NCBI GenBank assembly: GCA_001542995.1
Contig: LFLA01000021.1
Location: 324,875-388,874 of the forward strand
Reading direction: 5' to 3'
Length of the DNA stretch: 64,000 nt
Source of the DNA: Nitrospina sp. LS_NOB
GTDB taxonomy: Bacteria; Nitrospinota; Nitrospinia; Nitrospinales; VA-1
Position 1 is the stretch's first letter; the number at the start of each line of letters is the position of its first letter. The notes beneath the pieces were generated by a model, which was given only the letters and a program-made list of their open reading frames with translations, ran no database searches and had not been told where the DNA came from. Below are positions 11,191-63,826 of the stretch, in pieces. The position numbers were made by a program, and so were the translations under genes.

Positions 11191-12477
11191 ATGATTTTGG
11201 CTAAACACATTTCTAGTCTTCGTCGGTCTTTTGCGATGTTGCTTTTGGCAACCCTGGTTTCTGCCTGCGCTTCAGACCTACAAACCAAGGTGTCCGGACA
11301 TCTTAATGGACTGTCCAAGCATCAAACCGTGGCCATCCTGCCCGTTGAAGCAAGCAATAAGGGGCAAAAAGAAATGGCAAAATTGTTCCGGCAAGGTTTA
11401 TATGCCAACCTCAAGCAATCCAAATTCAATTTACTGGAAAAATATATTGTAGACGGTCTGCTGAAGCAAAACAACTTGAACGATCCCGCAAGCTTTCTCG
11501 CTATCAATCCCATGCAGTTTGGTGAAATCCTGGGCGCAGATGCTATTGTGTTCAGCCGAATCAACAAAGTGGAACGCAGTTACTTTATTGTGCATTCCTC
11601 CATCGAACTCAGCGTCTCCGTGCAAATGGTGGACACACGCACCGGAGAGATTCTCTGGCGAGCCGAACAAACGGAACATGATTTTTCCGGTATCGGCAAA
11701 ATTCCAACCGGAATCTTCACCGCCCTGCTCGCTCCCATTCAGTTTGTGACCAATAAATTCAACCTAAGCAAGATGACCTCTAAAATGGTCAATAAGCTGA
11801 CCGCCTTGGTGAAGAAACCCGAAGACGCGGAAAAAGAAACTCAATTCGAAAAAACGGTGATCGCAAAAAAAGCCACCACCGACCTGAATAAAATTGAAGA
11901 ACTCCAGCAACTCAAAGCTGAATGGAACCAGGTGCTGGCTCTGGATGAGGAAGTTTTATCAAGTGAAATCCAAAAAGAAGCGATGGTTCCGATAAAAAGT
12001 TCCCCATCTTACGTACCGGTAGGAAAAATTCAAAACGAGGGGCCACTGAAAGCCGTGGTTCGAAAAATTGGGGCCACGGATGCAGAAAGGACCCAGCATC
12101 CAACTGCTCCTGAAACAAAAAAACAAAAAATCGCAACATCCATTCCCTTGAGCGCGTATAAAGCAACCCCGGCTATATCTCCCCGCATCGATGACCGACT
12201 GTCTCGCGTAAAAGCTAAATCCGGCAAAAACATAAATAAAAGTCTAACACCGACGTTATATACCGTGCAGGTGGGGGCTTATAAAACCAAAGCCTATGCT
12301 CAAAATCTTTTGAAGAAACTGGTAAAAAAAGGCTACAACGCTTTCGTGATTCACAACAAGATTTACAAAGTGCAGGTGGATAAATTTAAAAATAAGCAGG
12401 ACGCCCTCAAACTCGCCCAACTCATCCGGAAAAACGAAAACCTGAAAAACTTTGTGACCACCATCCAAACGGGTTAA
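11191..12477 (+). CDS. lipoprotein, LpoB/CsgG-like domain + C-terminal SPOR domain
   Basis: Lipobox LLLATLVSA|C. QTVAILPVEASN...FGEILGADAIVFSRIN...VDTRTGEILWRAEQTEHD. C-terminal SPOR-like YTVQVGAYKTKAYAQNLLKKLVKKGYNAFV...YKVQVDKFKNKQDALKLAQLI. Confidence 0.75.
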   Translation: MILAKHISSLRRSFAMLLLATLVSACASDLQTKVSGHLNGLSKHQTVAILPVEASNKGQKEMAKLFRQGLYANLKQSKFNLLEKYIVDGLLKQNNLNDPASFLAINPMQFGEILGADAIVFSRINKVERSYFIVHSSIELSVSVQMVDTRTGEILWRAEQTEHDFSGIGKIPTGIFTALLAPIQFVTNKFNLSKMTSKMVNKLTALVKKPEDAEKETQFEKTVIAKKATTDLNKIEELQQLKAEWNQVLALDEEVLSSEIQKEAMVPIKSSPSYVPVGKIQNEGPLKAVVRKIGATDAERTQHPTAPETKKQKIATSIPLSAYKATPAISPRIDDRLSRVKAKSGKNINKSLTPTLYTVQVGAYKTKAYAQNLLKKLVKKGYNAFVIHNKIYKVQVDKFKNKQDALKLAQLIRKNENLKNFVTTIQTG

Positions 12478-12481
12478 ACCT

Positions 12482-13324
12482 ATGGTCAACGAAATTTTTC
12501 CTATTAAAGATATCGGCTACTGGTCAGAAATTAAATTAGACATAATAAAAAAATATGCCCACGCCTACTCCACGATACTTACTCAACAAAGAGGCCTAAA
12601 GCCAATTTACATAGATGCTTTTGCCGGCACAGGGATCCACCGAAAAAAAGGCTCAGGAGAGCTAATTCCAGGATCCCCTCTTAATGCAATAAATGTCGAC
12701 CCACCGTTTTTTGAATACCACTTTGTTGACATTGACAAAGACAAAGTTGATTTCCTGAAAAATATTGTATTAAAAAGGGTAAATGTCAACGCCTCTGTCT
12801 ATGAGGGCGATTGCAATGACATCTTAATAAACGATCTTCTTCCTAAAGTTAGATATCAAGACTTTAAAAGAGCGCTATGCTTTTTAGATCCTTATGGACT
12901 ACACTTAGATTGGAATGTTATTAAAAAGGCGGGAGAAATGGGAACATGTGATATTTTTTTAAATTTCCCGATTCTTGACATGAACAGGAATGTGCTTCTA
13001 TGCGACCCCGATAAAGTTGCACAAAAAGAAATTGAACGAATGAACCGATTTTGGGGAGACGAGAGTTGGAAGGAAGAAATTTACAATACCCAACAAGGTT
13101 TATTTGGAGAAGACCAGAAAATTAAGGGAGATATTTTAGGGCTAATAAAAGCTTTCCGAAAAAGGTTAAAGGAAGTGGCTGGTTTTTCTGAAGTAACCGA
13201 GCCTATTCCCATGAAGAACGAACAAGGGGGAACATTATATTTTTTGTATTTTGCCTCCCAAAAACGGGTAGCAGCAAAAATTGCTCGGGATCTTTTTAAA
13301 AAATACCGAGTTGCAGGTTTATAG
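12482..13324 (+). CDS. three-Cys-motif partner protein TcmP-like (methyltransferase-like fold)
   Basis: WSEIKLDIIKKYAHAYSTIL...IYIDAFAGTGIH...PGSPLNAI matches my recollection of the TcmP family, which pairs with Gp37/Gp68 proteins. Visibly AT-richer than its flanks. Confidence 0.7.
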   Translation: MVNEIFPIKDIGYWSEIKLDIIKKYAHAYSTILTQQRGLKPIYIDAFAGTGIHRKKGSGELIPGSPLNAINVDPPFFEYHFVDIDKDKVDFLKNIVLKRVNVNASVYEGDCNDILINDLLPKVRYQDFKRALCFLDPYGLHLDWNVIKKAGEMGTCDIFLNFPILDMNRNVLLCDPDKVAQKEIERMNRFWGDESWKEEIYNTQQGLFGEDQKIKGDILGLIKAFRKRLKEVAGFSEVTEPIPMKNEQGGTLYFLYFASQKRVAAKIARDLFKKYRVAGL

Positions 13325-13327
13325 TTT

Positions 13328-14047
13328 ATGGCCTCTCAATCTACAATTGAATGGACGGAATCAACCTGGAACCCGGTAACGGGGTGCACCAAAATCAGTC
13401 CCGGTTGTAAGCTTTGCTACGCAGAGCGGATGGCTCACCGCCTTGAAGCCATGGGTTCGCCTAATTATCGCAACGGCTTTGAAACCACCCTTCATCTCCA
13501 TGCCCTGGGAATTCCTCTAAAATGGAAAAAACCACAAATCGTTTTTGTCAATTCTATGAGCGATTTGTTTCACGATGATGTACCTTTAGAATTTATTCAG
13601 CGTGTTTTTGAGGTTATGGCTCAAGCCTCACAACATCAATTCCAAGTCTTGACTAAACGCGCAGAAAGGCTGGAAAAAATAAGTAAAGACCTTATTTGGT
13701 CAGAAAATGTCTGGATGGGAGTAAGCATCGAACGTGCGGATTATTTATACCGGATTAAACGTCTTCGAAAGACAGGCGCCAAAATCAAATTCTTATCCCT
13801 CGAACCATTATTAGGCCCTTTAAGTAAAATAAATTTAAAGGGAATGGATTGGGTGATTGTTGGGGGAGAATCAGGGCCCGGAGCAAGGCCTATGAAACCA
13901 CAATGGGTTACAGGGATTCGAGAACAATGCCATCAAGCCAATGTTCCTTTTTTCTTTAAACAATGGGGTGGCACCAATAAGAAGAAAGCAGGTAGAACTC
14001 TGGAGGGAAAAACCTACGACGAAATGCCGGAACTCGCCACCATATAA
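13328..14047 (+). CDS. DUF5131 / phage Gp37-Gp68 family protein (three-Cys motif)
   Basis: N-terminal [29 protein letters not shown] (C-x6-C-x2-C) and C-terminal [15 protein letters not shown]...FFFKQWGG, typical of the family. Lies 3 nt after the TcmP stop. Confidence 0.8.
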
Positions 14048-14085
14048 ACTCAAGTCTAGACAAATCAGTTTATTACCCTAAAATA

Positions 14086-14263
14086 GCCGACGAGCAGAGC
14101 CGAGATTTTATTAAGCGAATGCAAAAATCCGCATATGGAATGAAAAAATTTATCGATGACTTGCTTCGTTTTTCAAAGGTTTCAACCGAAAATATTCCTT
14201 TCAAAAAAAGTTGACTTGGAACATAACAGCAAAAACAGTTGCGGCTTGGCTTTCTGGCGTTGA
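14086..14263 (+). pseudogene. histidine-kinase remnant (end of HisKA/DHp helix region only)
   Basis: ADEQSRDFIKRMQKSAYGMKKFIDDLLRFSKVSTENIPFKKVDLEH resembles the ...a.rM..LIdDLL.fSRv......f..vdL segment of sensor kinases. No phospho-His box, no HATPase domain, no start codon. Confidence 0.45.
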
Positions 14264-14272
14264 AGGTTTTGG

Positions 14273-15412
14273 TTACTGTTTTGATGCCACAAATTTATCC
14301 AGCAGATCGAAGAAACGGCTGACCTCATCTTCACTATTATAAAAATGTGGTGAGAGACGGACCAGACCGTCACGGACGGTGAGCTTGACCTTGTTCTCCA
14401 ACATCCATTCATAGAGCTGGCTGATATCCTGATTCATGACGAAAGCAATATTTCCAGAACGTTCTTCCGGGCGGGTGGAGCTATAAACTTTCAGTCCGCG
14501 CCGGTTGAGTTGTTCGAGAATCCTATCGCCCAGAGTCATCACCCGTTTCTCGATATTTTCGATCCCTGTTTCCAGTAGCAGGTCCAGTGCCGCACCAAAT
14601 GCGTGAATGCTCATCGTGTTGGGCGAACCTTCTTCAAAACGTTGCGCACCCGGCCTGAAGGCAAACTCATAATTCATGAAGTCTGCGGCATTGACCATGT
14701 TTCCCCATCCTACCGTTACCGGATAGACCTTTTCTAGAGCATCCCTGGAAATATAGAATCCGCCAAGCCCCTCGACACTGAGCATCCACTTATGCCCATC
14801 TGCAGAGAGAAAATCAATATGATCGCGTTTCACATCCATCGGCAGGAGTCCCAGGCTTTGAATAGCATCGACGCAAAACAGGATGCCCTTTTCTTTGCAG
14901 AACGCGCCGATGCGGTTGAGGTCACAACGGAAGCCACTATTGCATTCCACCGAACTGATGGAAATGAGTCTGGTCCGGGCATCCACATGCTTGACCAGAT
15001 CGTCAAACAACACCCGCCCCTCAACAGCAGGAACCATGCGGGTTTCAACACCCAAACGTTTCAGGTTCCACCAAGGGTAAACATTGGCAGGAAACTCAAT
15101 GTCAGGGATGACCACATTGTCGCCCGACTTCCAATCCAGTCCATTGGCAACGATGGAAAGTCCTTCGGAGGTATTTTTGACAAATGCCACCTCATCTGTC
15201 CCGGCGTTGATGAGCCGGGCAAAACTTTTTCGGGACTGTTCGATGCCCACCATCCAGGTTTCGTAATGGACCGTGCCGTAGCGGGTGGCGTCATCCACAA
15301 ATGCAGTCACTACTTTACGCACCCGCTCGGGCAAGGGTGCCACCCGGGCATGGTCGAAAAAGATCAACTCCTCCGTGACGGGAAACTCTTCTTTGATATT
15401 TTCAAAATTCAT
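14273..15412 (-). CDS. class V aminotransferase (cysteine desulfurase/selenocysteine lyase-like)
   Basis: MNFENIKEEFPVTEELIFFDHARVAPLP..., PLP-lysine context FLSADGHKWM, ...RLSPHFYNSEDEV. ATG 15412 is preferred because the track's 40 extra codons overlap dinB. Confidence 0.85.
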   Translation of the reverse strand: MNFENIKEEFPVTEELIFFDHARVAPLPERVRKVVTAFVDDATRYGTVHYETWMVGIEQSRKSFARLINAGTDEVAFVKNTSEGLSIVANGLDWKSGDNVVIPDIEFPANVYPWWNLKRLGVETRMVPAVEGRVLFDDLVKHVDARTRLISISSVECNSGFRCDLNRIGAFCKEKGILFCVDAIQSLGLLPMDVKRDHIDFLSADGHKWMLSVEGLGGFYISRDALEKVYPVTVGWGNMVNAADFMNYEFAFRPGAQRFEEGSPNTMSIHAFGAALDLLLETGIENIEKRVMTLGDRILEQLNRRGLKVYSSTRPEERSGNIAFVMNQDISQLYEWMLENKVKLTVRDGLVRLSPHFYNSEDEVSRFFDLLDKFVASKQ

Positions 15413-15419
15413 TTTAGCC

Positions 15420-16586
15420 TTACGCCGAGTAGCGGCTCGTCCCTCGTAATATGGATTTAAAACCATATTTATGACGGATGCGGTCGATACCCTGATACAG
15501 ACCATCCCAGCATTGACCTCCTTTATCATCAAACAATTCTTCCTGCCGATAAGGGTGTGCGGTCAACGAAGTGAACGCGATACCGATGAGACGCACCTGC
15601 ATCTGGCGCGTAAACAGCTTGCGGAATAATCCCGCACAGGTTTTAAATAACATATGGTCTTCCGCTGTTGGCATCTCCAGTGTTTTTGATCGGGTCACTG
15701 TCTTAAAATCGGAGTAACGCAGTTTCAACGTCACCGTACGAGCAAACAACTTGTTTTCCCTGAGCTGGCCCGCTGCTTTTTCGGTCAGGTAACTGAGTGC
15801 GGACTCCAGAAATAACGGGTCTGTTGAATCCGTCTCCAATGTCGTTTCACGGCTGATCGAGCGTGGGTCTTCAGTTTCGCTGATGACCGGACTGTCACTG
15901 ATCCCCCTGGCCTTGCGGTAAAGAGACACACCCCATTTGCCATAAACCTCTTCAAGAAGTTCAAGCGGCAGGCGGGCCAGGTCGCCCACAGATTTAACGC
16001 CCATGCGTTGTAGTTCAGCACCGCCTTTTGGTCCGATACCTGGAACGCGGCGGATGGGGAGCGGAGCCAGGAACCTTTGTTCCATCCCCGGTGCGATCCA
16101 CAACATTCCATTGGGCTTGCAATAAGCCGAGGCAATCTTGGCCAGTAGTTTGTTGGAAGCAATGCCAATGGAAGCGTTCAAACCCAGCACCTCACGAATC
16201 TCGTTGCAAATTTTTTCCGCCGACACCAGAACCGGACCGTGCAGCCTTTCGCATCCGGTCAAATCGACAAACGCTTCATCGAGCGAAATCGGTTCGACCA
16301 GAGGAGAATAGCGTTTTAAAATTTCAAACACCTTAACCGAGTATTCGCTGTACCGTCGGTGCGAACCACTGAGAAAAATTGCGTGCGGACACAACCTCTT
16401 CGCTTTCGCAATCGGCATTGCGGAATGAACACCATACCGCCTCACCGCATAGGAGGCGGCCGCAACCACCCCTCTTCCTTCAGGGCTACCACCGACTATT
16501 ACAGGTTTGCCCTTCAGGGATGGGTCGAGCACCTCTTCCACCGACACGAAAAACGCGTCCATATCCACATGCAATATATTTCGCAA
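15420..16586 (-). CDS. dinB: DNA polymerase IV (Y-family)
   Basis: (M)RNILHVDMDAFFVSVEEVLDPSLKGKPVIVGG..., SLDEAFVDLTG. TTG 16586 preceded by AAGGGG gives the canonical N-terminus. The track start (GTG 16658, overlapping the lexA stop) adds 24 codons that coincide with an R5 repeat copy. Confidence 0.9.
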   Translation of the reverse strand: MRNILHVDMDAFFVSVEEVLDPSLKGKPVIVGGSPEGRGVVAAASYAVRRYGVHSAMPIAKAKRLCPHAIFLSGSHRRYSEYSVKVFEILKRYSPLVEPISLDEAFVDLTGCERLHGPVLVSAEKICNEIREVLGLNASIGIASNKLLAKIASAYCKPNGMLWIAPGMEQRFLAPLPIRRVPGIGPKGGAELQRMGVKSVGDLARLPLELLEEVYGKWGVSLYRKARGISDSPVISETEDPRSISRETTLETDSTDPLFLESALSYLTEKAAGQLRENKLFARTVTLKLRYSDFKTVTRSKTLEMPTAEDHMLFKTCAGLFRKLFTRQMQVRLIGIAFTSLTAHPYRQEELFDDKGGQCWDGLYQGIDRIRHKYGFKSILRGTSRYSA

Positions 16587-21148: not shown

Positions 21149-22813
21149 TCATTTTTTCTTTGAAATTAGGGTTTTAAGGCGGGCTTTGATATTTTCATAC
21201 TTCAAACGAAGATGGGCTTTACCATTTTTGGTTAATAAGCCTGTGTGACCAACAACATTTCTTACTGGTGCATAAGCAATCGCGTCGTCCCGCAATGACT
21301 GCTTGCCCCCTCCGTCCTTAGAGCCTTCTGCGGTGATAGCAAGATCGTCCATGCTCAAATAACTTATATCGCTATTATCTTTTCTTATATCGAAACTGAG
21401 ATTAGCTTTACCCTTCTTAACTGATTCACGTTGTCGCCATTTTTCAGCTTCTTGTTTGGTTTTTTTCTCGAGCTTTATCGTATTCGAATCAATATATTTA
21501 CGGACTAAATTTTCAGATAAAAAGCAGTCGGCGTAAGAGGATAAATTAAACTCAGCATCGTCGCGCAATGCATTCAGCCATTCTTCAACTTGATCTCTCT
21601 GTGGTGAATCATCATCGGGCTCATATTCTTCTTTCGTGGCAGAATATAAATCCCTCGCCTTTCTTTCCTTCTTTGTTTTTCGCGTATTTTCTTGATCTCC
21701 CTCTTCACCTCTGTCTAGACGCAGTTTATCCCAAGAATCGAATATTGCTGGCAGCGCCTCACGCTTTAAATAATCGAGTAAAGATTGAAAATTTTCGTCA
21801 TCCTCGACTATGCCTTCTCGGCTGCTGGTAAAAGGGTCTTTGCCTAAAACATCCATTGAATCGAAATGGATCTGTCCATATATATAACTTTCTATAATTC
21901 GCTGAGTAGGAATATGGCTAATTATGTTCTTTTCTCTTAGTCTACCGTTTACGAACAAATCAATAGTTGCGCGCTCTTCAGTGCCTGTTATCTTTAGGTT
22001 TCTTGGCTTTTTTACAGATGCTATAAATCCCCCAACATCTAACGCAGTAGTAAGCTTTATTTTTTTATGCTTTAAGCTCTTTAACTTTTTAACGAAATCA
22101 TCATCAAGATTGTTTATTACCCATACGAATTCGGTAGCGTCTACCAGGTCTTTTATGTCATCAAAAGAGACTTTTTCGTTATTAACGTGAATAGAAAAAT
22201 TTTCGTCTATCAAAGAAAAATGAAAATTGAGTGCGATGAGCTTCTTTATGTGTGCAATAGAGTTCTTTATTTGATCTTTAGTTTCTTCAAAGCAGATAAT
22301 TGTTCCCCGTTTATGTTTCTTGGTTAAGTCATGTATTGATTTAACATCAAAAGCTTCTAATGGATACTTATCTGGAGTTAAGTCACTTTTAATAGCTTGG
22401 TCTAAACTAGTATTGTCAATTACCCCGCCGACATAGTCGCCCCCTGTTTTTTTTGTAAAAACAGAGATACGTTTTGCGCATGATAGAAGTGCTAGTTTTC
22501 CAATTCCTTTGGCTCCTATAAATGGTCGTTCGGACTTCGTATTCATCTTGCCAGATGCCCGTTTGCTATATCCGATTTTTAAAAATTTCGATTGAAAATC
22601 ATTGGCGTCCATCCCAATACCATCATCTTTGATGCTAAATACTTGCTTATCCTTGTCAATTTCTATCCACACGTTTTCAGCATCAGCATCCCAAGCATTA
22701 GATATCGCTTCGCCCAAAACTGTAATAAAGTTGCGATATAAATTCCGCCCAAGGTGATTTAATACACTCAGAGAAATTTCGAAGTTAAAATTATTATTTA
22801 ATTTCTTATTCAC
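21149..22813 (-). CDS. GHKL (HSP90/MutL/MORC-like) ATPase with helical C-terminal region carrying an RNxxxH motif
   Basis: Bergerat-fold motifs: GEAISNAWDA (N box), IKDDGIGMD (DxGxG), IGAKGIGKLALLS (G2). C-terminal ...APVRNVVGHTGLL (R518-H523). AT-rich. Lies 13 nt downstream of dcm on the same strand. Confidence 0.8.
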   Translation of the reverse strand: MNKKLNNNFNFEISLSVLNHLGRNLYRNFITVLGEAISNAWDADAENVWIEIDKDKQVFSIKDDGIGMDANDFQSKFLKIGYSKRASGKMNTKSERPFIGAKGIGKLALLSCAKRISVFTKKTGGDYVGGVIDNTSLDQAIKSDLTPDKYPLEAFDVKSIHDLTKKHKRGTIICFEETKDQIKNSIAHIKKLIALNFHFSLIDENFSIHVNNEKVSFDDIKDLVDATEFVWVINNLDDDFVKKLKSLKHKKIKLTTALDVGGFIASVKKPRNLKITGTEERATIDLFVNGRLREKNIISHIPTQRIIESYIYGQIHFDSMDVLGKDPFTSSREGIVEDDENFQSLLDYLKREALPAIFDSWDKLRLDRGEEGDQENTRKTKKERKARDLYSATKEEYEPDDDSPQRDQVEEWLNALRDDAEFNLSSYADCFLSENLVRKYIDSNTIKLEKKTKQEAEKWRQRESVKKGKANLSFDIRKDNSDISYLSMDDLAITAEGSKDGGGKQSLRDDAIAYAPVRNVVGHTGLLTKNGKAHLRLKYENIKARLKTLISKKK

Positions 22814-22826
22814 TAAGGGAATCCTT

Positions 22827-23885
22827 TTAGCAAGCTTTAATAATGGTTTTTCCTATCGCTTTTGCCAGCTTAACGGGGACTGCATTTCCAATCCATCTGC
22901 CTACTTCAGTAAAAGAAATTTTTTCATTAACGGGTAAAAATTCGTATCTGCGAGGAAAAGACTGGAAAATCGCAGCTTCTCTCAGGGAAATTGCTCGATT
23001 TTGCTCTGGGTGGCCAAATCGACCATTACCATAACCATAGCACTGTGTTGTCATTGTGGGTGATGGGTCATCCCATGTCATACGTGCATAGACGCCCGAA
23101 TATGTTTTTCCAGTGACGCGACGGTGGCATGGTGAGCGTAACCCTTTAGGCCAATCGCGCCAAGTTCCTCCTGGGGTAGATGCCTTAATTCGTTTTAGAT
23201 TTAAATTTGATAGAAATGCAGCAATATGGAGAGGGTCTTTACTGCTGGACTCACCGGCCTCTAGCTGGGGCAATTTGCCAATTGCCTTACATACAGAAAC
23301 AAAATTTTTATGTGAGGGTCGCAATGGTTTAAGGTTTCCAGCTTTGGAAGCTATAACTACTAGTCTTCTTCTCTTTTGCGGTATCCCGAACTCTTCACAT
23401 TTTGCTACAGTCCATTCCACTTGATAGCCAGCCTTCCGAAGAGAGTTACAAAATTGCTTAAATACGATGCCATTTTTGTATTTCATGAGTGCTGGAACAT
23501 TTTCCATTGTTACAAAATCCGGATTTGCTTTTACTGCCAGTTTTGCAAATTTTGCAACTAAGTCCCAACTTGGGTCTTCGTCATACCTTTGTTTATATGT
23601 TGAAAATGGTTGGCAGGGAGCACATCCCGCAAGGATGGAAGGTGCATTTCCACTAAAGTGATTCTTGATTTCTTTAGCGGTAAGCTTTGCTACATCTCTC
23701 GTATAAAACGTAGCGTCATTATTTTTTTCAAATGCATACCTACACCTTGCATCTGTGTCATATCCAGCAACAATTTTTAGCCCTGCGCATTTTAGCCCAT
23801 GACTTAAAGCGCCGACGCCGCAAAACAAATCAACCACTTCGCCAAAATTTGAATGTTTCCCTTTTTTTCTCCTTTGTATAGCCAT
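22827..23885 (-). CDS. dcm: DNA (cytosine-5)-methyltransferase
   Basis: Motif I DLFCGVGALSHG, motif IV GCAPCQPFS, motif VI TMENVPAL, motif VIII QKRRRLVVIAS, motif X GNAVPVKLAKAIG. Confidence 0.92.
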   Translation of the reverse strand: MAIQRRKKGKHSNFGEVVDLFCGVGALSHGLKCAGLKIVAGYDTDARCRYAFEKNNDATFYTRDVAKLTAKEIKNHFSGNAPSILAGCAPCQPFSTYKQRYDEDPSWDLVAKFAKLAVKANPDFVTMENVPALMKYKNGIVFKQFCNSLRKAGYQVEWTVAKCEEFGIPQKRRRLVVIASKAGNLKPLRPSHKNFVSVCKAIGKLPQLEAGESSSKDPLHIAAFLSNLNLKRIKASTPGGTWRDWPKGLRSPCHRRVTGKTYSGVYARMTWDDPSPTMTTQCYGYGNGRFGHPEQNRAISLREAAIFQSFPRRYEFLPVNEKISFTEVGRWIGNAVPVKLAKAIGKTIIKAC

Positions 23886-52223: not shown

Positions 52224-52568
52224 CTAACCCGGCGGCCAGTTCAAGGCGCGACCGCCTAAAAGATGATAATGAATATGATACACCGACTGCCCGGCCCCGG
52301 CACCACAATTGACCACCAGCCGAAACCCTGATTTATCGAGTCCCCTCTCCTTCGCCAGTTGGTTTGCCACACTGATCACCGAACCCATCAACGTATGATC
52401 CTTCTCCTCGACATCCAGCAAGGTAGCCTGATGGATTCGGGGGATGATCAGGATATGCGTAGGAGCTTGCGGGTTGATATCATTAATCGCGAACAAGGTG
52501 TCCGATTCATAAACCTTATCTGAAGGGGTAGTCCCCTCGCTGATTTTGCAGAACAGGCAATCACTCAT
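52224..52568 (-). CDS. HIT-family (histidine triad) nucleotide hydrolase
   Basis: MSDCLFCKI..., triad GQSVYHIHYHLLGG. ATG 52568 overlaps the pafA-like stop by 8 nt (ATGAGTGA). Confidence 0.88.
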   Translation of the reverse strand: MSDCLFCKISEGTTPSDKVYESDTLFAINDINPQAPTHILIIPRIHQATLLDVEEKDHTLMGSVISVANQLAKERGLDKSGFRLVVNCGAGAGQSVYHIHYHLLGGRALNWPPG

Positions 52569-54063
52569 AAGATTTTTTTCCGTGTCGCTCCGGGTTTCCC
52601 ATATCCTGTTTATTTTCCTGGTGGGGGAGAGAATCAAACTGCTCAAGATGCTCTATGATTTCTTCTTTATAGGAGATGAATGGATCGAGCATCAGAAACG
52701 GTTCGTCAGTTTTGCTCAGGCGAAATCCGATCCAGTCTATGAGATAACCCATGTGAGAATGCTGGTTCATGAGCCTTTTAACAAGCTCTCCCCGGCCATG
52801 CGCCCGGGTTCCTCTTGGAGGATTGACTTTTGAGAAGTCGACGGCCTCATCGGTGGTTTTGCGGTAACCATCGCCACTGGCTTCCAATCCCCAGAACAGA
52901 CCGGTTTCCTTATTCAGGTTATGGTATTCCAGATCCAGGCTTTTGAGCCAGGGGTCGTGCCATTCCAGGTTTTCTTCGTTTCTAAACTCGTTGAGCATCC
53001 AATACTTGCTGGCCCAGTCCACTCGGCCGATCACCGCTTCCGGTCCTTTAGGTAAATCGGTCAAGACCGATTCCCAGCCCTCCAGAATCCAGTCGGTCTC
53101 CCGGTTTGTCCCAGCCAGATGTTCCTTACAGGTATTTAAAATATCCCATTGTAGTTCCAAAGCGGTGGAATATTTTCCCGAAGCCAGTTTCACCTCCCAT
53201 TTAAAATCCGGATCGCGAGAAATAGAACGCATGGCAAAAACCGAGTCCGCAAGAATCCATTCCCGTTTGGCGACCCCCAACTGCATGATTTCCAACATGA
53301 GGGTTGTGGTTCCCATCTTCATGGCGGTGGCAAACTCACTCATCGTCGAGTCACCGACCAAAAGATGAATGCGCCGGTATTTGCTCGGGTCCGACAACGG
53401 CTCGTCGCGGGTGTTGACAATCGCCCGGTTATATTGCACCCACCGGTAAAATTCATTGGGAATGTGGTCAGCCCTTTGTGACAGCTGAAAGTTCACCTCA
53501 TCGTCCTGATTTTCATAAGGTGTGATGCCATCCCAATCCTGAAACGGGTGGGGATCGCAGGAACCGATGCGGCCCGCACCGCAATAAATCAGTCGAGTAG
53601 TTAAAAAGGAAGAAAGCAGTTTCAGGTTGTCGCGCTCATCGAAAGGGAATCCTCTACCGACCAGATAATTCTCGTGGCAGCCGAACGTCGCGCTGGTTTC
53701 AAGATCCACATTGTTCTTGATGAACGAAACATGATCGGCCCAGCCCAACTCCTCCACCGCTTCCTGAATCAGCGTGTCGCCGGCGCGGTCAAAAGTCACC
53801 AGGTCAACAAGATTGGAACATTCCGGAGAGGCGTATTCTAAATGCCCCATGTCGAGATACAAGCGCCCACCGTTAAGCAGAAACCCGCCGTTACCGGGGG
53901 GCTCATCGTTAGCGCGGTAGTGAAGGTCCAGCACACCATGATTTTTTGAGAAAATATGGTTCTTGACCTTGTTGGCCACTTCCATCGAGTCGAGAGGGAA
54001 CTCCGCATCATTTTTGATCAGCAGGCCGTATTCCGTTTCGATGCCGTAGATTCGTTTTTTCAT
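52561..54063 (-). CDS. pafA: Pup/UBact ligase PafA homologue
   Basis: MKKRIYGIETEYG..., short N-terminal region then LNGGRLYLDMGHLEYASPEC (as in PafA [22 protein letters not shown]). Lacks the long acidic insertion seen in the Dop-like paralogue. CHENYLV. Confidence 0.85.
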   Translation of the reverse strand: MKKRIYGIETEYGLLIKNDAEFPLDSMEVANKVKNHIFSKNHGVLDLHYRANDEPPGNGGFLLNGGRLYLDMGHLEYASPECSNLVDLVTFDRAGDTLIQEAVEELGWADHVSFIKNNVDLETSATFGCHENYLVGRGFPFDERDNLKLLSSFLTTRLIYCGAGRIGSCDPHPFQDWDGITPYENQDDEVNFQLSQRADHIPNEFYRWVQYNRAIVNTRDEPLSDPSKYRRIHLLVGDSTMSEFATAMKMGTTTLMLEIMQLGVAKREWILADSVFAMRSISRDPDFKWEVKLASGKYSTALELQWDILNTCKEHLAGTNRETDWILEGWESVLTDLPKGPEAVIGRVDWASKYWMLNEFRNEENLEWHDPWLKSLDLEYHNLNKETGLFWGLEASGDGYRKTTDEAVDFSKVNPPRGTRAHGRGELVKRLMNQHSHMGYLIDWIGFRLSKTDEPFLMLDPFISYKEEIIEHLEQFDSLPHQENKQDMGNPERHGKKSYE

Positions 54064-56114: not shown

Positions 56115-57575
56115 TCAAACCAATTGTTTGCTGGAGTTAAGAACCTCTTCAACCTCTTCGGAGCTAATGACTCCGGTCAAATCAAGAATCTCTCCGTTCA
56201 TAAACTCAACTCCGGTCCAATGAATACTTTTTATTTTTTCCGCTCCTTGAGCCACCGCCTGCCCTCTTATCTGAGCGCGGGTTCCTACCGGGGGCGACTC
56301 AACAGCCCGGGCGATTTCTTCTTCACTGAGCAGGGAAAAAACATCTCCCTCCTGCTGCAATCCCCGATACAATCCGCGATCAGGGTCCAGATTATGGTAT
56401 TCCAAATCCAGGCTCTTGAGCAAGGGGTCATCCCAGCCAATGCCCTCGGACTGCATGAACCCGGCAAATAGTTTTTCCTTGATCGCCCAGTCAATGCGAT
56501 CCGAAAGTTTTTCCGGACTGTGCCGAAGTTCATCCAGTGTCTTTTTCCATTCCGCAAGAATCCAGTCCCACTCGCGATCCTTTCCGGCAAAGGCTTTTTC
56601 CACCACTTCCAGATACGCTTCCTGAATCTCAAGAGCCGTGATAGTACCACCAGTCTTGCGACGTAAAACTGCAGTTTTGTCGAGAGACACTCTCAACACA
56701 TCGGCCACTGGGTCCGCCAATTCCAAATGGAGAAGTTTCTCCCCACGGGCGATCAGATTGAGAACCAGCGATGTACTCCCCACCTTCAGGGCCGTGGCAT
56801 AAGCGGACATATTGGCATCGCCGAGAATTAAATGCAAACGCCGATACCGACTGCTCACCGCATGCGGTTCGTCCCGGGTATTGATGAGGGGACGTTTCGT
56901 CATGGTCTCAATGCTTAAAACTGTCTCGATAAAGTCGGACCGCTGGGCCAACTGCAATCCTTGAAAATCACTAGCGCTTTCCGATCCCACTTTTCCTGCC
57001 CCGGCATACAACTGGCGCGTCACCAGAAAAGGAGCCAGCCCTTTTACCACATCTTCAAAGGGAGTTGCTCTGGGGATGAGATAGTTATCATGAGTTCCAT
57101 AACTATGGCCGCTGTAATCAGTATTATTTTTGAACACCTGAAGGGGTTTGCCCTCCAGCTCGCGGTTGCGAATGGCCGCGCATTCGGCGACAATCCGCTC
57201 GCCCGCCACATCATGTGCCACCAGAGATAACACCGACCGGCATTCCGGGGTGCTGTATTCCGGATGAGTATGATCATTATAAAATCGGGCACCATTTGTC
57301 AAAACCCGGTCGCACTTCATATCTAAATAAGAATAAGGCCTTTTACGATCTTCGGCGCAAAAGGCATCTTCTTCCTCATCCTGAGCCAAAGACCCCACCC
57401 GAAACCCACGCATATCCAGATGCGAGTTCTCCTGCGAGTAGGCCCATTTGCCAAAAACACTTTTGCGCTCGCAGGCCTTTAAAAGTTTCATGGACTCTTC
57501 AACCGGGTCGGAATTTTCCATATCTTCCCGGACTATCCCATACTCGGTCTCCATACCCAGGAGAGAAACACTCAT
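56115..57575 (-). CDS. dop: deamidase/depupylase Dop homologue
   Basis: MSVSLLGMETEYGI..., long acidic insertion (LDMRGFRVGSLAQDEEEDAFCAEDRKRPYSYLD) before LTNGARFYNDHTHPEYSTPEC, like the Dop loop and DHAHPEYSAPEC. ATG overlaps the mpa stop (ATGA). Confidence 0.85.
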   Translation of the reverse strand: MSVSLLGMETEYGIVREDMENSDPVEESMKLLKACERKSVFGKWAYSQENSHLDMRGFRVGSLAQDEEEDAFCAEDRKRPYSYLDMKCDRVLTNGARFYNDHTHPEYSTPECRSVLSLVAHDVAGERIVAECAAIRNRELEGKPLQVFKNNTDYSGHSYGTHDNYLIPRATPFEDVVKGLAPFLVTRQLYAGAGKVGSESASDFQGLQLAQRSDFIETVLSIETMTKRPLINTRDEPHAVSSRYRRLHLILGDANMSAYATALKVGSTSLVLNLIARGEKLLHLELADPVADVLRVSLDKTAVLRRKTGGTITALEIQEAYLEVVEKAFAGKDREWDWILAEWKKTLDELRHSPEKLSDRIDWAIKEKLFAGFMQSEGIGWDDPLLKSLDLEYHNLDPDRGLYRGLQQEGDVFSLLSEEEIARAVESPPVGTRAQIRGQAVAQGAEKIKSIHWTGVEFMNGEILDLTGVISSEEVEEVLNSSKQLV

Positions 57576-59188
57576 ATGATAGACCTGCGAATCGTATTTT
57601 CGGTTGCCTTATCCGATTCGCTGGGCTTTCTTACCCGCACAACATTTTTTGATTCCATATCCAAAAGCTGAAGCCAGTCTTCCATATTGGATTCGGCGGG
57701 AAGCAGGTTGCCTTCCTCAAATTCAGCCTCCAGTGAAACAATAAGATCGTCCACCGTCATACACAGCGTTTCACCCTGAATCGCCCGTTCAATGGCTCTC
57801 TCTTTAGCGCGTTTCATGATTCCCTCAATGACCGCGCCGGAAATGAAATCGTTCCAATACAGTTTCTTCGTGCCACCGCTTCTTAAAGTCAACACCAGCA
57901 CTTCCTGTTTCGAACTGCGGTCAAACAGACGATCCAGAAAGGGTTCAGCCATGGCGTCAAAATCTTCATGTTCGCGGGGAAGCCCTTCTTTCAGATAAAC
58001 ACGCAGGATGGCTTTAGACTCTTCGCGGTTGGGACGCGACACTTTGATCTTCCTGTCAATTCTTCCGGGCCGGATGACAGCCGGGTCGATCAGGTCGGGC
58101 CGGTTGGTCGCCAGAATCACCACCGTTTCGCGAAGGGACTGGATGCCATCCATCTCCGCGCAAAACATGGGGACCACCGTGTTGCTGATGTTCGATCCGC
58201 GCCACGCCTGCCGGATTCCCAAAATTGACTCCGCTTCATCTATAAAAATGAAAGGGATCTGACCTTTTTCTTTATAGTCCCGGGCTTTCTTAAAAATTTC
58301 ACGGATTTTACGTTCCGATTCCCCCAGCCACATATTGAGGATCTCCGGTCCTTTGACATGAATGAACCGGCCCTGAAGTTCGGAATCTTCCTGCTCGGAA
58401 AGTTTGCGGATCACTTCGGTGAGAATCGCTTTTCCTATGAGAGTTTTTCCGCAACCCGGAGGACCATAAAACAAAAATCCTTTGGGCACCTGATATTCCA
58501 TCTGGCTCAGAATTTCTTTGTGCAGGAGCGGATATTCGAGGACTTTGCGCACCTCTTCTTTTACTTTTTCTTGTCCGCCCACTTGTGACCATTCCACATG
58601 TTCATAATCGTCTTCAACCAGAGTGCGAGACTCGCGTTTAGAAAGTTTGCCTAAAATAACTCTTTGGTTACTGTCGAGAAAAATTTCTTCCCCCTCTTTC
58701 AGCCCATCTTCATCCAGACCATCTCGGACCAAAACAATCGTCTCGGTATTGCCAGTCGCCGCCTGCACCAGCCATTGCCCGCCAGCAAGCTTTCCGGAAA
58801 TTTTTGCAAGTGGCCCCTGAGTGGGAAAAGGTAGCAGTGCAATCACCACAAATCCTTCATTCAGCGCCACCTGATCACCGGTTTTCAATCCCTCATTTTC
58901 CGTAAGTTCCGGGACGACCGCAGCCTGGTATTCCGTGCCTCCGGAAACCAGACGCACCAGACCGTCCTCCCCCTGGCCCAGAATCGTGCCGATCCGATGG
59001 GCGGGAGACTTTAACTTTTCAATGGCTTCCTCCAAGGTCTTGATTTTCAATGCATACTGCTGGGCAGACTGCTGGGCCTGGAACAGAGCATCCCTAAGAT
59101 CAAGAATCTTTTCCTGCAATTGGGGTCGATCCTGGGTTTCATTTAAAACCTGGTCGATCAACTCTACGATATGGGTCTGGTCTCCCAT
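57572..59188 (-). CDS. mpa: proteasome-associated AAA+ ATPase (Mpa/ARC homologue)
   Basis: N-terminal coiled coil (LQEKILDLRDALFQAQQSAQQYALKIKTLEEAIEKL), OB-like region, Walker A GPPGCGKT, Walker B FIFIDEAES, second region of homology. Confidence 0.9.
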   Translation of the reverse strand: MGDQTHIVELIDQVLNETQDRPQLQEKILDLRDALFQAQQSAQQYALKIKTLEEAIEKLKSPAHRIGTILGQGEDGLVRLVSGGTEYQAAVVPELTENEGLKTGDQVALNEGFVVIALLPFPTQGPLAKISGKLAGGQWLVQAATGNTETIVLVRDGLDEDGLKEGEEIFLDSNQRVILGKLSKRESRTLVEDDYEHVEWSQVGGQEKVKEEVRKVLEYPLLHKEILSQMEYQVPKGFLFYGPPGCGKTLIGKAILTEVIRKLSEQEDSELQGRFIHVKGPEILNMWLGESERKIREIFKKARDYKEKGQIPFIFIDEAESILGIRQAWRGSNISNTVVPMFCAEMDGIQSLRETVVILATNRPDLIDPAVIRPGRIDRKIKVSRPNREESKAILRVYLKEGLPREHEDFDAMAEPFLDRLFDRSSKQEVLVLTLRSGGTKKLYWNDFISGAVIEGIMKRAKERAIERAIQGETLCMTVDDLIVSLEAEFEEGNLLPAESNMEDWLQLLDMESKNVVRVRKPSESDKATENTIRRSII

Positions 59189-61822: not shown

Positions 61823-61871
61823 CCAGCGTGACGCTGGACTCAATGAGGGGAAATCACAGCCCCGCGCCTAG
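61819..61871. repeat. 45-bp repeat insert bracketed by CTAG ... CTAG between convergent tonB and dinG
   Basis: CTAG(61819-22)-ccagcgtgacgctggactcaatgaggggaaatcacagccccgcgc-CTAG(61868-71). The left CTAG holds the tonB TAG and the right CTAG holds the dinG TAG on the other strand. Confidence 0.75.
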
Positions 61872-63826
61872 CGGAAGAAGTCTCGGACTTCATCCAAGTG
61901 GGTCGTGACCGGACAAGGTGGTAATGATGCGATGAACTGTTTGCCATACCCACGCCGCCTCATGCGGGAATCAAGAATTGAAACCACACCGGTGTCGGTC
62001 TTCTTGCGGATCAACCTGCCGAACCCCTGCTTCAACTGAAGGATCGCCCGGGGAATCTGGTAATGCCTGAACGGGTCGATATGTTGCCGACGCAATTCTT
62101 CAATACGGGCTTCTGTCAAAGGTTCTTTGGGAACGTCAAAGGGAAGTTTGGTGATGATGACACTTTGCAACGCGTCACCGGGTATGTCCACTCCCTGCCA
62201 GAAGGAGTTGGTTCCGAAAATCACTGAGGGTTCCTGCTTGAACTTTTTGATCATCTGGACGGTGGGCATTTCTCCCTGGCGAATGAGCGGGAACTGGAAC
62301 TGAAGCTCGTCCAGTCTTTCATAAACCTGATTGAGAAGCGCATAACTTGTAAACAGGATAAATGTTTTACCGCCGGAAGCCTCCACTAGTTCCCGGCACC
62401 GGTTAGCAATACCCTCTACATAAACTCCTGCTTCATCCCCCGGTTCGGGGAGATCATCAGGAACATAGAGCAGGGCTTGGCGGGGGTAATCGAAAGGTGC
62501 CTCTAAAGACAACTCATCATCCGGCTGATAACCAATACGCTCTTTAATAAAATCGAATCCTTTGGCAGTGGTTAATGTCGCCGAGGTCATGACCACCCGG
62601 TCAATTTTATCGAACACCTGTGCGTGCAGTTCTTCCGCAACATGAATGGGAACCCCGCGCAAGACCACACGGGCAAAATGTTTTCTTGGCGTGATTTCCA
62701 ACCAATAAACATATCCGCACATGTGCTGGTTGAGAATGGCAGATAGAGCGTTATTGAACTCAAAACAACGCTCGGCAGCGGATGAAACATCAACCCGGTC
62801 TTCCTCCGAATGCAGACCTCCTTCCAAAGATTTCAATGCCTCCCGCAGGGCTTCGAGCGGAACATACACACCGTTATCCAACACGGGCGGTTTGTAGAAC
62901 CGTAAGACCCGGTCGTTTTTTCCATACTGTTCCAGAAGTTGATTGAAAAAAACATCGGCCGCTTGACGTGCGGACATCACCAACTTGCGAATATGCGGCA
63001 CCGAGTCGTGATTGATGCGAGTCAACAACCCCCGTTTGGTGCGCGGATTATGCAACCGGTCGAGAAAATAGATCAAACTGGAATTGGAAATTTCCAGCCC
63101 CAAAAACTGGGTGGCCGCTTCTTCCAGATTCTGAGCCTCGTCAAAAACCACCGCGTCGAAAGCCGGTAGTACCGCTCCGGCGTTGGCAACGTTGGCAAAA
63201 AATAAATGGTGGTTGACGATCAAAAGATGGGCGCCGAACCATTTCTTGCGGGCTTTGAAATAAAAACAAGACGAATGTGTTTCACAGTTTTTTCCCAGAC
63301 ACAGGTCTTTCTGCCGCCCCACCTCTTCCCACACCTGAGGAAGCACCTCAAAAGACAGATCACTGCGATAGCCGGTCTCAGTCTCTCCAGCCCAGTTGAA
63401 AATTCCTTCCCATTGCTTTTCCTCATCGGGTTGGGTGAACAACCCCGCCTGCGCCGACCGTTTCAACCGCCTGAGCGATAGGTAGTTTTCGTTACCCATG
63501 CACAAGGCATAGCGAAAGGCTATTCCCAATTTGTCGCGGAGCAGAGGAATATCGTGATTGATAATCTGATGCTGAAGCGTCTTGGTATAAGTGGAGATGA
63601 CCACCTTCTTGTTATTTTCCACGGCCCATAAAATGGCCGGGATGAGGTAGGCCAAACTTTTGCCCGTTCCGGTGCCCGCTTCGACAATCAGATGCCGGGC
63701 ATTGCCAAACGCCTCCTCCACCGCCTCGGCCATATCCATTTGCTGACGACGGAATTCGAATCCCTCCAACCGCGAAGACAGAATGCCCTCTTTACCGAGA
63801 TAGTTTTCCACCCTATTTGCTGTCAT
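61868..63826 (-). CDS. dinG: DinG/XPD-family ATP-dependent DNA helicase (Fe-S type)
   Basis: Walker A EAGTGTGKSLAYLIPA, DEAQ box VVFDEAQNLEE, Cys cluster (..LCMGNENY.. CLGKNCETHSSCFYF), C-terminal helicase motifs (QGFGRLIRKKTDTGVV). Confidence 0.85.
   Translation of the reverse strand: MTANRVENYLGKEGILSSRLEGFEFRRQQMDMAEAVEEAFGNARHLIVEAGTGTGKSLAYLIPAILWAVENNKKVVISTYTKTLQHQIINHDIPLLRDKLGIAFRYALCMGNENYLSLRRLKRSAQAGLFTQPDEEKQWEGIFNWAGETETGYRSDLSFEVLPQVWEEVGRQKDLCLGKNCETHSSCFYFKARKKWFGAHLLIVNHHLFFANVANAGAVLPAFDAVVFDEAQNLEEAATQFLGLEISNSSLIYFLDRLHNPRTKRGLLTRINHDSVPHIRKLVMSARQAADVFFNQLLEQYGKNDRVLRFYKPPVLDNGVYVPLEALREALKSLEGGLHSEEDRVDVSSAAERCFEFNNALSAILNQHMCGYVYWLEITPRKHFARVVLRGVPIHVAEELHAQVFDKIDRVVMTSATLTTAKGFDFIKERIGYQPDDELSLEAPFDYPRQALLYVPDDLPEPGDEAGVYVEGIANRCRELVEASGGKTFILFTSYALLNQVYERLDELQFQFPLIRQGEMPTVQMIKKFKQEPSVIFGTNSFWQGVDIPGDALQSVIITKLPFDVPKEPLTEARIEELRRQHIDPFRHYQIPRAILQLKQGFGRLIRKKTDTGVVSILDSRMRRRGYGKQFIASLPPCPVTTHLDEVRDFFR

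Follow-up and report, generated by a model that had tools for sequence, protein, structure and literature searches.

In this article we analysed a two-gene cassette at positions 12482-14047 of a 64,000-nucleotide (nt) stretch of Nitrospina sp. LS_NOB DNA (contig LFLA01000021.1, positions 324,875 to 388,874; the whole stretch is called the window). The cassette consists of tcmP, which encodes a three-Cys-motif partner protein, and a gene of the DUF5131 (Gp37/Gp68) family, which encodes a three-Cys protein resembling the radical S-adenosylmethionine (SAM) superfamily. We propose that the pair would act as a two-subunit SAM-dependent enzyme modifying a nucleic-acid base, most probably in DNA, and we give this reading about the same chance of being right as of being wrong. 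The hypothesis of DNA-base modification rests on the RlmJ-like TcmP with its altered catalytic loop, on a natural fusion of DUF5131 with TcmP and on a fusion of ParB domains with DUF5131. It should be emphasized that the pair is already known as the defence candidate PDC-M41, in which the word defence is the label of a candidate only, and that the locus represents no new type of system but a clean, typical instance of a catalogued candidate.

Both genes lie on the forward strand. The first ATG of tcmP (12482-13324, 280 amino acids) stands 4 nt after the stop codon of a SPOR lipoprotein gene, and the DUF5131 gene (13328-14047, 239 amino acids) follows tcmP after 3 nt. The original prediction had described the genes as tightly packed and richer in AT than their surroundings, and both statements were borne out: the GC content is 0.374 in tcmP and 0.439 in the DUF5131 gene, compared with 0.477 over the whole window, and the GC content at third codon positions (GC3) is 0.34 and 0.40, respectively, against 0.50-0.69 for the neighbouring genes. 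The motifs pointed out at that time were also all present, namely the stretch IYIDAFAGTGIH with its core YIDAFAGTGIH in TcmP, and C-x6-C-x2-C, GGESG and FFFKQWGG in the DUF5131 protein.

The family assignment, made originally without database searches, was confirmed by searches with hidden Markov models. TcmP matched TIGR04474 (E 1.3e-56) with 192.4 bits against the NCBIfam cutoff of 53, over residues 13-275 of its 280 and positions 1-262 of the 263 in the profile, and DUF5131 matched PF07505 (E 8e-104) with 346.8 bits against the Pfam gathering threshold of 28.9, over the full profile (1-243 of 243). In PADLOC-DB v2 the two adjacent genes matched PDC-M41A (TcmP, 246 bits) and PDC-M41B (DUF5131, 408.5 bits) end to end; additionally, DUF5131 matched PDC-M30B with 397 bits, the N-terminal half of TcmP weakly matched PDC-M30A, and DUF5131 matched PHROG 2045. 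PADLOC PDC entries are "guilt-by-embedding" candidates, mostly without a phenotype, although a few others of them have been tested, and PDC-M30 correlates with phage-resistant strains of P. aeruginosa. The partnership had been called recognised but functionally uncharacterised, and this description stands: the NCBIfam name of TcmP derives from its partnership with the three-Cys protein, and the literature on DUF5131, TcmP, PDC-M41 and PDC-M30 yielded catalogue mentions, annotations and correlations, with no experimental test found. TcmP appears there as an annotation only, for example adjoining the Hna defence gene of S. meliloti.

TcmP and DUF5131 proved to be an obligate pair. When the GTDB species representatives were scanned with the TcmP alignment, at least 584 loci were obtained, about 50-57% identical to the query, with Acidobacteriota, Planctomycetota, Chloroflexota, Nitrospirota, Desulfobacterota, Myxococcota, Verrucomicrobiota and others among the matches listed. 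Eighty loci were kept, and DUF5131 adjoined TcmP in each of the 79 that could be tested, the contig of the eightieth ending 8 nt past TcmP. DUF5131 was mostly found 3-25 nt downstream on the same strand, occasionally in convergent or divergent orientation. A conserved third gene was absent from these 80 loci (the next-commonest neighbour cluster occurred in 6 of them), and no cognate nuclease was conserved among them or found at the locus analysed here. An exhaustive HMMER search returned about 40,800 DUF5131 clusters (50% identity) at E <= 1e-3, and the top 150 included a natural DUF5131+TcmP fusion (P0432, 558 amino acids, 189 bits to TIGR04474) and a ParB_N + ParB-HTH + DUF5131 fusion (P0505, 519 amino acids). 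In a large part of the family TcmP is the obligate DUF5131 partner. Three further long DUF5131 proteins (P0393, 736; P0412, 711; P0426, 521 amino acids) carry C-terminal extensions without a clear Pfam domain, that of P0412 having only a sub-threshold FGase match.

The pairing extends to viral sequences. In IMG/VR, DUF5131 lay within 300 nt of TcmP relatives (24-53% identical) in 60 of 80 contigs, in several gene orders. In about 20 others (L214, L217-L224, L226, L228, L230, L233-L236 and others) the viral proteins match mostly only residues ~12-208 of TcmP with about 31-32% identity, and DUF5131 was not detectable in the locus; these proteins may form a family of related N-terminal domains that has another partner.

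The predicted structure of TcmP has the fold of an RlmJ-like class-I SAM methyltransferase, which refines the "methyltransferase-like core" of the original prediction. With the AlphaFold2 model (pLDDT 93, pTM 0.90) as Foldseek query against the PDB, RlmJ and DUF519 proteins were the best matches (6qdx, 2oo3, 4blu; E 8e-8 to 1e-6, TM 0.5-0.57, nearly full length), and generic class-I methyltransferases ranked after RlmJ and the DUF519 protein 2oo3. Comparison of the TcmP alignment with E. coli RlmJ by hhalign gave a probability of 87% and E 4e-6, significant over residues 64-147 only. In this alignment S65, D83, D110 and D136 of TcmP correspond to RlmJ S100, E118, D143 and D164, which serve in RlmJ for the amino-acid moiety of SAM, the ribose, the adenine and, in motif IV, catalysis, respectively (PMC3814359). 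All four are invariant or nearly so in TcmP homologues. Furthermore, in 67 homologues Y43, D45, F47, G49, G51 and H53 of motif I (YIDAFAGTGIH, residues 43-53, the predicted SAM-binding loop, 12608-12640, forward strand) are invariant, as are D136, P137, Y138 and G139 of the motif IV variant L-D136-P-Y-G (12884-12898, forward strand). Motif I resembles YLDTHAGAGRY of RlmJ and VIDGYAGRGRY of gp43 from Gordonia phage Jablanski, and the N-terminal Lys18 is common to TcmP and RlmJ. Jablanski gp43, annotated as a "methyltransferase", is related to TcmP over the full length (hhalign E 6e-6, 240 columns). At the level of sequence TcmP matched no Pfam family at E <= 0.01, and no PDB sequence either as a single sequence or as a profile.

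TcmP almost certainly binds SAM and a nucleobase, since in model and alignment its fold and its cofactor and adenine residues coincide with those of RlmJ. RlmJ is the 23S rRNA m6A2030 methyltransferase; its catalytic site is similar to that of DNA m6A methyltransferases, and its pocket can hold a mononucleotide, as seen in the AMP complex (PMC3814359). The motif IV of TcmP, D-P-Y-G, has one Pro fewer than the DPPY of RlmJ and does not conform to the (D/N)PP(Y/F/W) of N6-adenine methyltransferases, and in Jablanski gp43 the motif reads DPTG. Because of the missing second Pro and the DPTG of the phage homologue, TcmP may not transfer a methyl group at all.

The second protein is best regarded as a divergent and non-canonical branch that attaches to the radical SAM superfamily, and it belongs to one of the larger uncharacterised branches of this kind. 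In 157 homologues down to 41% identity, C20, C27 and C30 (C-x6-C-x2-C, 13385-13417, forward strand), the presumed ligands of a [4Fe-4S] cluster, are each kept in 97%. G179-G180-E181, D79, H103, T109-K110-R111, E135, R142 and E159 are conserved in at least 95%, and C201 in 80%. By analogy, the GGE-type motif (G179-G180-E181-S182, 13862-13873, forward strand) is presumed to contact SAM. DUF5131 matched TIGR04471, "radical SAM mobile pair protein A", with E 2.5e-29 and 102 bits, far under the cutoff of 355, and SFLD/RadicalSAM.org counts DUF5131 among the radical SAM subgroups and places it in one megacluster with spore photoproduct lyase. The AlphaFold2 model is an alternating beta/alpha barrel (pLDDT 79, about 54 in the Cys loop), for which Foldseek returned weak matches (TM 0.35-0.46) to designed TIM barrels, NifB, spore photoproduct lyase, BlsE, EpeE and phage radical SAM proteins.

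Based on these features the following mechanism is proposed. The two proteins would form a complex in which TcmP binds SAM and holds a flipped-out base in the pocket around the invariant Asp-Pro-Tyr-Gly loop. DUF5131 would bind a [4Fe-4S] cluster via C-x6-C-x2-C and a second SAM via the GGE motif, and would act on the nucleotide presented by TcmP by radical chemistry, or by chemistry that at least depends on Fe-S. The resulting modification would be more complex than plain N-methylation. The cassette is self-contained, no nuclease or other fixed partner belonging to it, and it spreads by horizontal transfer through many bacterial phyla and through temperate phages. In the Nitrospinales lineage analysed here it is an optional cargo, placed at a variable junction where two genes converge, and transcription probably reaches it from the lipoprotein operon. 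The benefit is most likely epigenetic DNA marking relevant to conflict with phages or mobile elements, hence the entry of the pair as the defence candidate PDC-M41; a role in defence, anti-restriction or epigenetics is unproven. A more specific form of the proposal is that a TcmP/DUF5131 heterodimer installs an undescribed, radical-derived modification on double-stranded DNA, where the RlmJ-like subunit would flip and hold the base and the non-canonical (C-x6-C-x2-C) radical SAM subunit would functionalise the target. We hold this form only tentatively and consider it rather doubtful. If it is true, it would mean a new class of epigenetic mark that has reached, by horizontal transfer, about 40,000 bacterial, archaeal and phage protein clusters and that serves in the conflict between phage and host with no nuclease dedicated to it.

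A DNA substrate and a link to genetic conflict are suggested by the ParB fusion, by Jablanski gp43 and the lysogeny regions of the Gordonia phages, by the PDC-M41 and PDC-M30 entries and by the Hna neighbour in S. meliloti. DUF5131 was found in 181 sequenced phage records, mostly of actinobacteriophages, Burkholderia phages and cyanophages. TcmP was recognisable by tblastn in only 5 sequenced phage records, and divergent partners also exist. In the two temperate Gordonia phages inspected the genes are located in the integrase/immunity-repressor region, which is the usual seat of lysogenically expressed accessory genes. The DUF5131 and/or TcmP-like copies of Jablanski (L098, 3492-5361) and BaxterFox (L099, 3492-4478) stand between the integrase and the immunity repressor, and the TcmP-like gene of BaxterFox lies directly downstream of the repressor gene. 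The prophage defence genes of Gordonia phage CarolAnn were also considered as possible homologues and were ruled out, being RexAB-like and unrelated.

Several points weigh against the modification of DNA by radical chemistry. On the side of TcmP these are the lack of the second Pro of (D/N)PP(Y/F/W), together with the DPTG of its phage homologue, and the fact that the substrate of RlmJ is RNA and not DNA. On the side of DUF5131, the Cys spacing is not the canonical CX3CX2C of the radical SAM superfamily. The hhalign comparison with E. coli PflA, a canonical radical SAM enzyme, was not significant, no PDB sequence was matched either with the single sequence or with the profile, the model is only moderately confident (pLDDT about 54 in the Cys loop) and the fold matches are weak. 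No experiment on any family member was found in the literature. Furthermore, a modification-only cassette without an effector is not an obvious defence system. The genomic surroundings point in the same direction. The pair had originally been said to occur often in phage or mobile contexts, but the present subfamily resides mostly in ordinary chromosome and not in phages or defence islands: the first 37 of the 80 GTDB loci supplied 125 nearest neighbours, which were overwhelmingly housekeeping genes with no family occurring more than 3 times, about 6 of them matched restriction-modification or other PADLOC defence models (no genomic baseline was computed for this number), and 2 were integrases.

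Four other explanations were weighed, all of them less likely than the proposed DNA-base modification. The strongest takes the cassette for a dispensable RNA-modification pair, in which TcmP would target an rRNA or tRNA adenine and DUF5131 would add radical chemistry, tuning translation without any relation to DNA or phages. In its favour, both the closest solved structures and the sole significant profile match of TcmP are those of a 23S rRNA m6A methyltransferase. Many radical SAM enzymes act on RNA adenines, RlmN/Cfr and MiaB being examples of such chemistry. The housekeeping surroundings in most hosts and the strong purifying selection on both proteins (DUF5131 is about 70% identical across phyla) are also in line with it. 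Against it stands the DNA-m6A-methyltransferase-like character of the RlmJ catalytic site itself (PMC3814359). The foreign composition of the pair, its presence in phage lysogeny modules, the fusion to the DNA-binding ParB, the defence embedding recorded by PADLOC, and a presence that varies within a near-identical population and is zero in 61 relatives, as described below, all speak against a translational role, and we regard it as unlikely.

A second explanation is a viperin-like antiviral small-molecule factory, in which DUF5131 would convert a free nucleotide by radical chemistry and TcmP would methylate or bind that nucleotide, yielding a chain terminator or a signalling molecule and no mark on a polymer. 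The relation of DUF5131 to the radical SAM superfamily, the status of the pair as a defence candidate and the ability of the RlmJ pocket to accommodate AMP (PMC3814359) are compatible with this, as is a module that needs no nuclease or other effector gene, in which it resembles prokaryotic viperins. However, the ParB-HTH fusion argues for an enzyme bound to DNA, the fold of TcmP is closest to polynucleotide methyltransferases, and no kinase or nucleotide-metabolism partner was seen in the surveyed neighbourhoods; we regard this explanation as improbable.

By its ribosomal protein S1 the window belongs to marine Nitrospinales. The pair is enclosed by a GNA1162-like/SPOR lipoprotein gene upstream (11191-12477, forward strand, PF05643 + PF05036), which is itself preceded by a second, paralogous GNA1162-like gene, and by a convergent class-V aminotransferase gene downstream (14273-15532, reverse strand, PF00266). 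In a protein collection of about 5.8 billion clusters the three closest TcmP homologues (86%, 69% and 61% identity) are all situated at the same junction, downstream of GNA1162/SPOR genes and, where the contig reaches, upstream of the convergent aminotransferase, dinB and lexA. The pair therefore occupies one site in four Nitrospinales lineages (window 12482-14047; L002 10001-11581; L006 3232-4797; L011 8001-8840). Compared with the 69% relative it diverged like conserved housekeeping genes, the identities being 69% for TcmP, 73% for DUF5131, 69% for LexA, 67% for DinB and 64% for the aminotransferase.

A metagenome scan anchored on the aminotransferase gave 80 relatives with 95% to 62% identity, 61 of which cover the SPOR/aminotransferase junction. 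The original prediction had allowed that the pair might turn out to be core in relatives; it is accessory, none of these 61 related Nitrospinales contigs carrying it. The SPOR lipoprotein gene adjoins the aminotransferase gene in all 61, with or without cargo between them. In the closest relatives (L103 and L104, 87% nt identity in the flanks) 46 nt separate the two stop codons. The homology of L103 to the window breaks off at about 12453, within the final SPOR codons, and sets in again exactly at the aminotransferase stop codon, 14273, and these edges delimit the extra block to 12478-14272, which contains the pair and a tail. The junction is a cargo hotspot in marine Nitrospinales: it is empty in most relatives, and elsewhere it is filled by an AhpC-like peroxiredoxin gene (L105, L127), by TetR and SDR genes with AhpC (L107, L110, L112-L114, L119, L121, L122) or without it (L144), by a decayed SDR gene (L123, L124) or by TcmP and DUF5131. 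The pair-bearing L006/L007 and the pair-less L105 are 98.8% identical over a 3.2 kb flank and differ by 1622 nt against 32 nt; these populations thereby supply natural near-isogenic alleles with and without the pair. The alleles part within the 3' end of the AhpC-like gene, whose last ~10 codons are not the same in the two, and this fits allelic replacement by homologous recombination and not site-specific integration.

These data also bear on the originally suggested horizontal insertion, which holds in its main point. The accessory status and the foreign composition agree with horizontal acquisition; a recent arrival and hallmarks of a mobile element were not found. A recent site-specific insertion of a mobile element, as opposed to long-resident polymorphic cargo, could have left empty sites with clean boundaries in the closest relatives, a low GC3 and the foreign-looking tail beside the pair, all of which are present. 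On the other hand, the same junction is used in four lineages, among them those of the three closest homologues in the whole collection. At conserved residues, the third codon positions of the window and of L006 have an identity of 0.62-0.65 in the pair, no higher than the 0.69-0.78 of the flanks, therefore the pair was not recently passed between the lineages. No tRNA gene was found in the window, no repeats at the boundaries and no integrase, transposase or other recombinase among the adjacent genes, and the near-isogenic indel has the boundary of an allelic replacement. A recent insertion thus has little probability. In every syntenic relative the pair has a GC3 of about 0.28-0.42, while that of the flanks is 0.5-0.8, and in other phyla its GC3 is also below the flanks in 53 of 56 loci for TcmP and in 48 of 56 for DUF5131, by which the cassette stands out as an accessory module in horizontal circulation. 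The pair has not ameliorated: the silent-site divergence of the pair is as large as that of the flanks, yet its low GC3 has persisted.

The last explanation, a DNA-repair enzyme related to spore photoproduct lyase and tied to the downstream SOS genes, is very improbable: DUF5131 shares its SFLD megacluster with this lyase, which also had the highest query TM-score among its PDB matches (0.45-0.46), dinB and lexA are within 3 kb of the pair, and a UvrA or LexA-like gene is near it in two other loci, but dinB and lexA stand in the same place in all 61 pair-less relatives, so their adjacency belongs to the locus and did not come with the cassette, LexA or DinB was found near the pair by tblastn in only 2-3 of the 80 loci, and no repair family recurs among the 125 neighbours, by which a link of the pair to SOS or repair genes was ruled out.

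The remaining part of the extra block is a non-coding tail of 225 nt (14048-14272). The gene remnant that had been noticed next to the pair proved to be the weakest part of the original prediction: an unframed 54-codon stretch (14050-14211, forward frame) weakly resembles the C-terminal half of the HisKA profile alone (E 8e-4, 19.8 bits against a gathering score of 26.9), and no further homologue of it was found in the window or in the compared loci. As a relative has an AhpC-like gene at this place, a decayed AhpC-like gene was also considered and was ruled out, only about 25 nt (window ~14061-14084) being common to the tail and the cassette of L007. No Rfam family matched the cassette or the tail.

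Among the adjacent genes (lipoprotein, aminotransferase, dinB, lexA), the open reading frame of the aminotransferase, with a TTG start at 15532, overlaps dinB by 113 nt (15420-15532). Its true start is probably near 15415-15455, since its matches in relatives begin at residue ~26-40 and its homologues have about 377 amino acids. Further away, a Type II restriction-modification-like pair of low GC content (0.385-0.40) was found on the reverse strand at 21149-23885, about 7 kb from the cassette, consisting of a C5-cytosine methyltransferase (22827-23885, PADLOC MTase_II, 286 bits) and a GHKL-ATPase-type protein (21149-22813, REase_II models, 141 bits). A Pup ligase and a proteasomal AAA ATPase of a Pup-proteasome system are encoded on the reverse strand at 52561-54063 and 57572-59188. 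The DinG-family helicase at 61868-63826 (reverse strand), which scored 428 bits on the PADLOC model "typeIV_DinG" of CRISPR type IV-associated proteins, is probably an ordinary DinG.

The proposed enzyme can be compared with several known systems. With RlmJ and the DUF519 proteins TcmP has in common the fold, the motif I, the Lys18 and the alignment of the cofactor, ribose and adenine ligands and of the catalytic Asp with its invariant residues. It differs from them in its motif IV, where DP-YG stands in place of DPPY, and in having an obligate partner with a predicted Fe-S cluster, whereas RlmJ has none. DUF5131 resembles the members of the radical SAM superfamily, such as spore photoproduct lyase, RlmN/Cfr and MiaB, in the three N-terminal Cys and the GGE motif; its predicted beta/alpha barrel matches their structures weakly, and it departs from them in the C-x6-C-x2-C spacing in place of C-x3-C-x2-C. 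Unlike restriction-modification systems, the cassette has no nuclease gene, and in contrast to the PDC-M41 and PDC-M30 entries the copy described here is apparently not embedded in a defence system, although the Type II pair lies about 7 kb away. The orphan and phage-borne DNA methyltransferases, including those fused to ParB, are likewise modification-only systems without a cognate nuclease, located in prophage lysogeny regions and distributed patchily and horizontally with low GC content, and the ParB fusion has its counterpart in the DUF5131 family; compared with them the TcmP/DUF5131 pair is distinguished by its two subunits, one of them a predicted Fe-S protein, and by its non-canonical motif IV.

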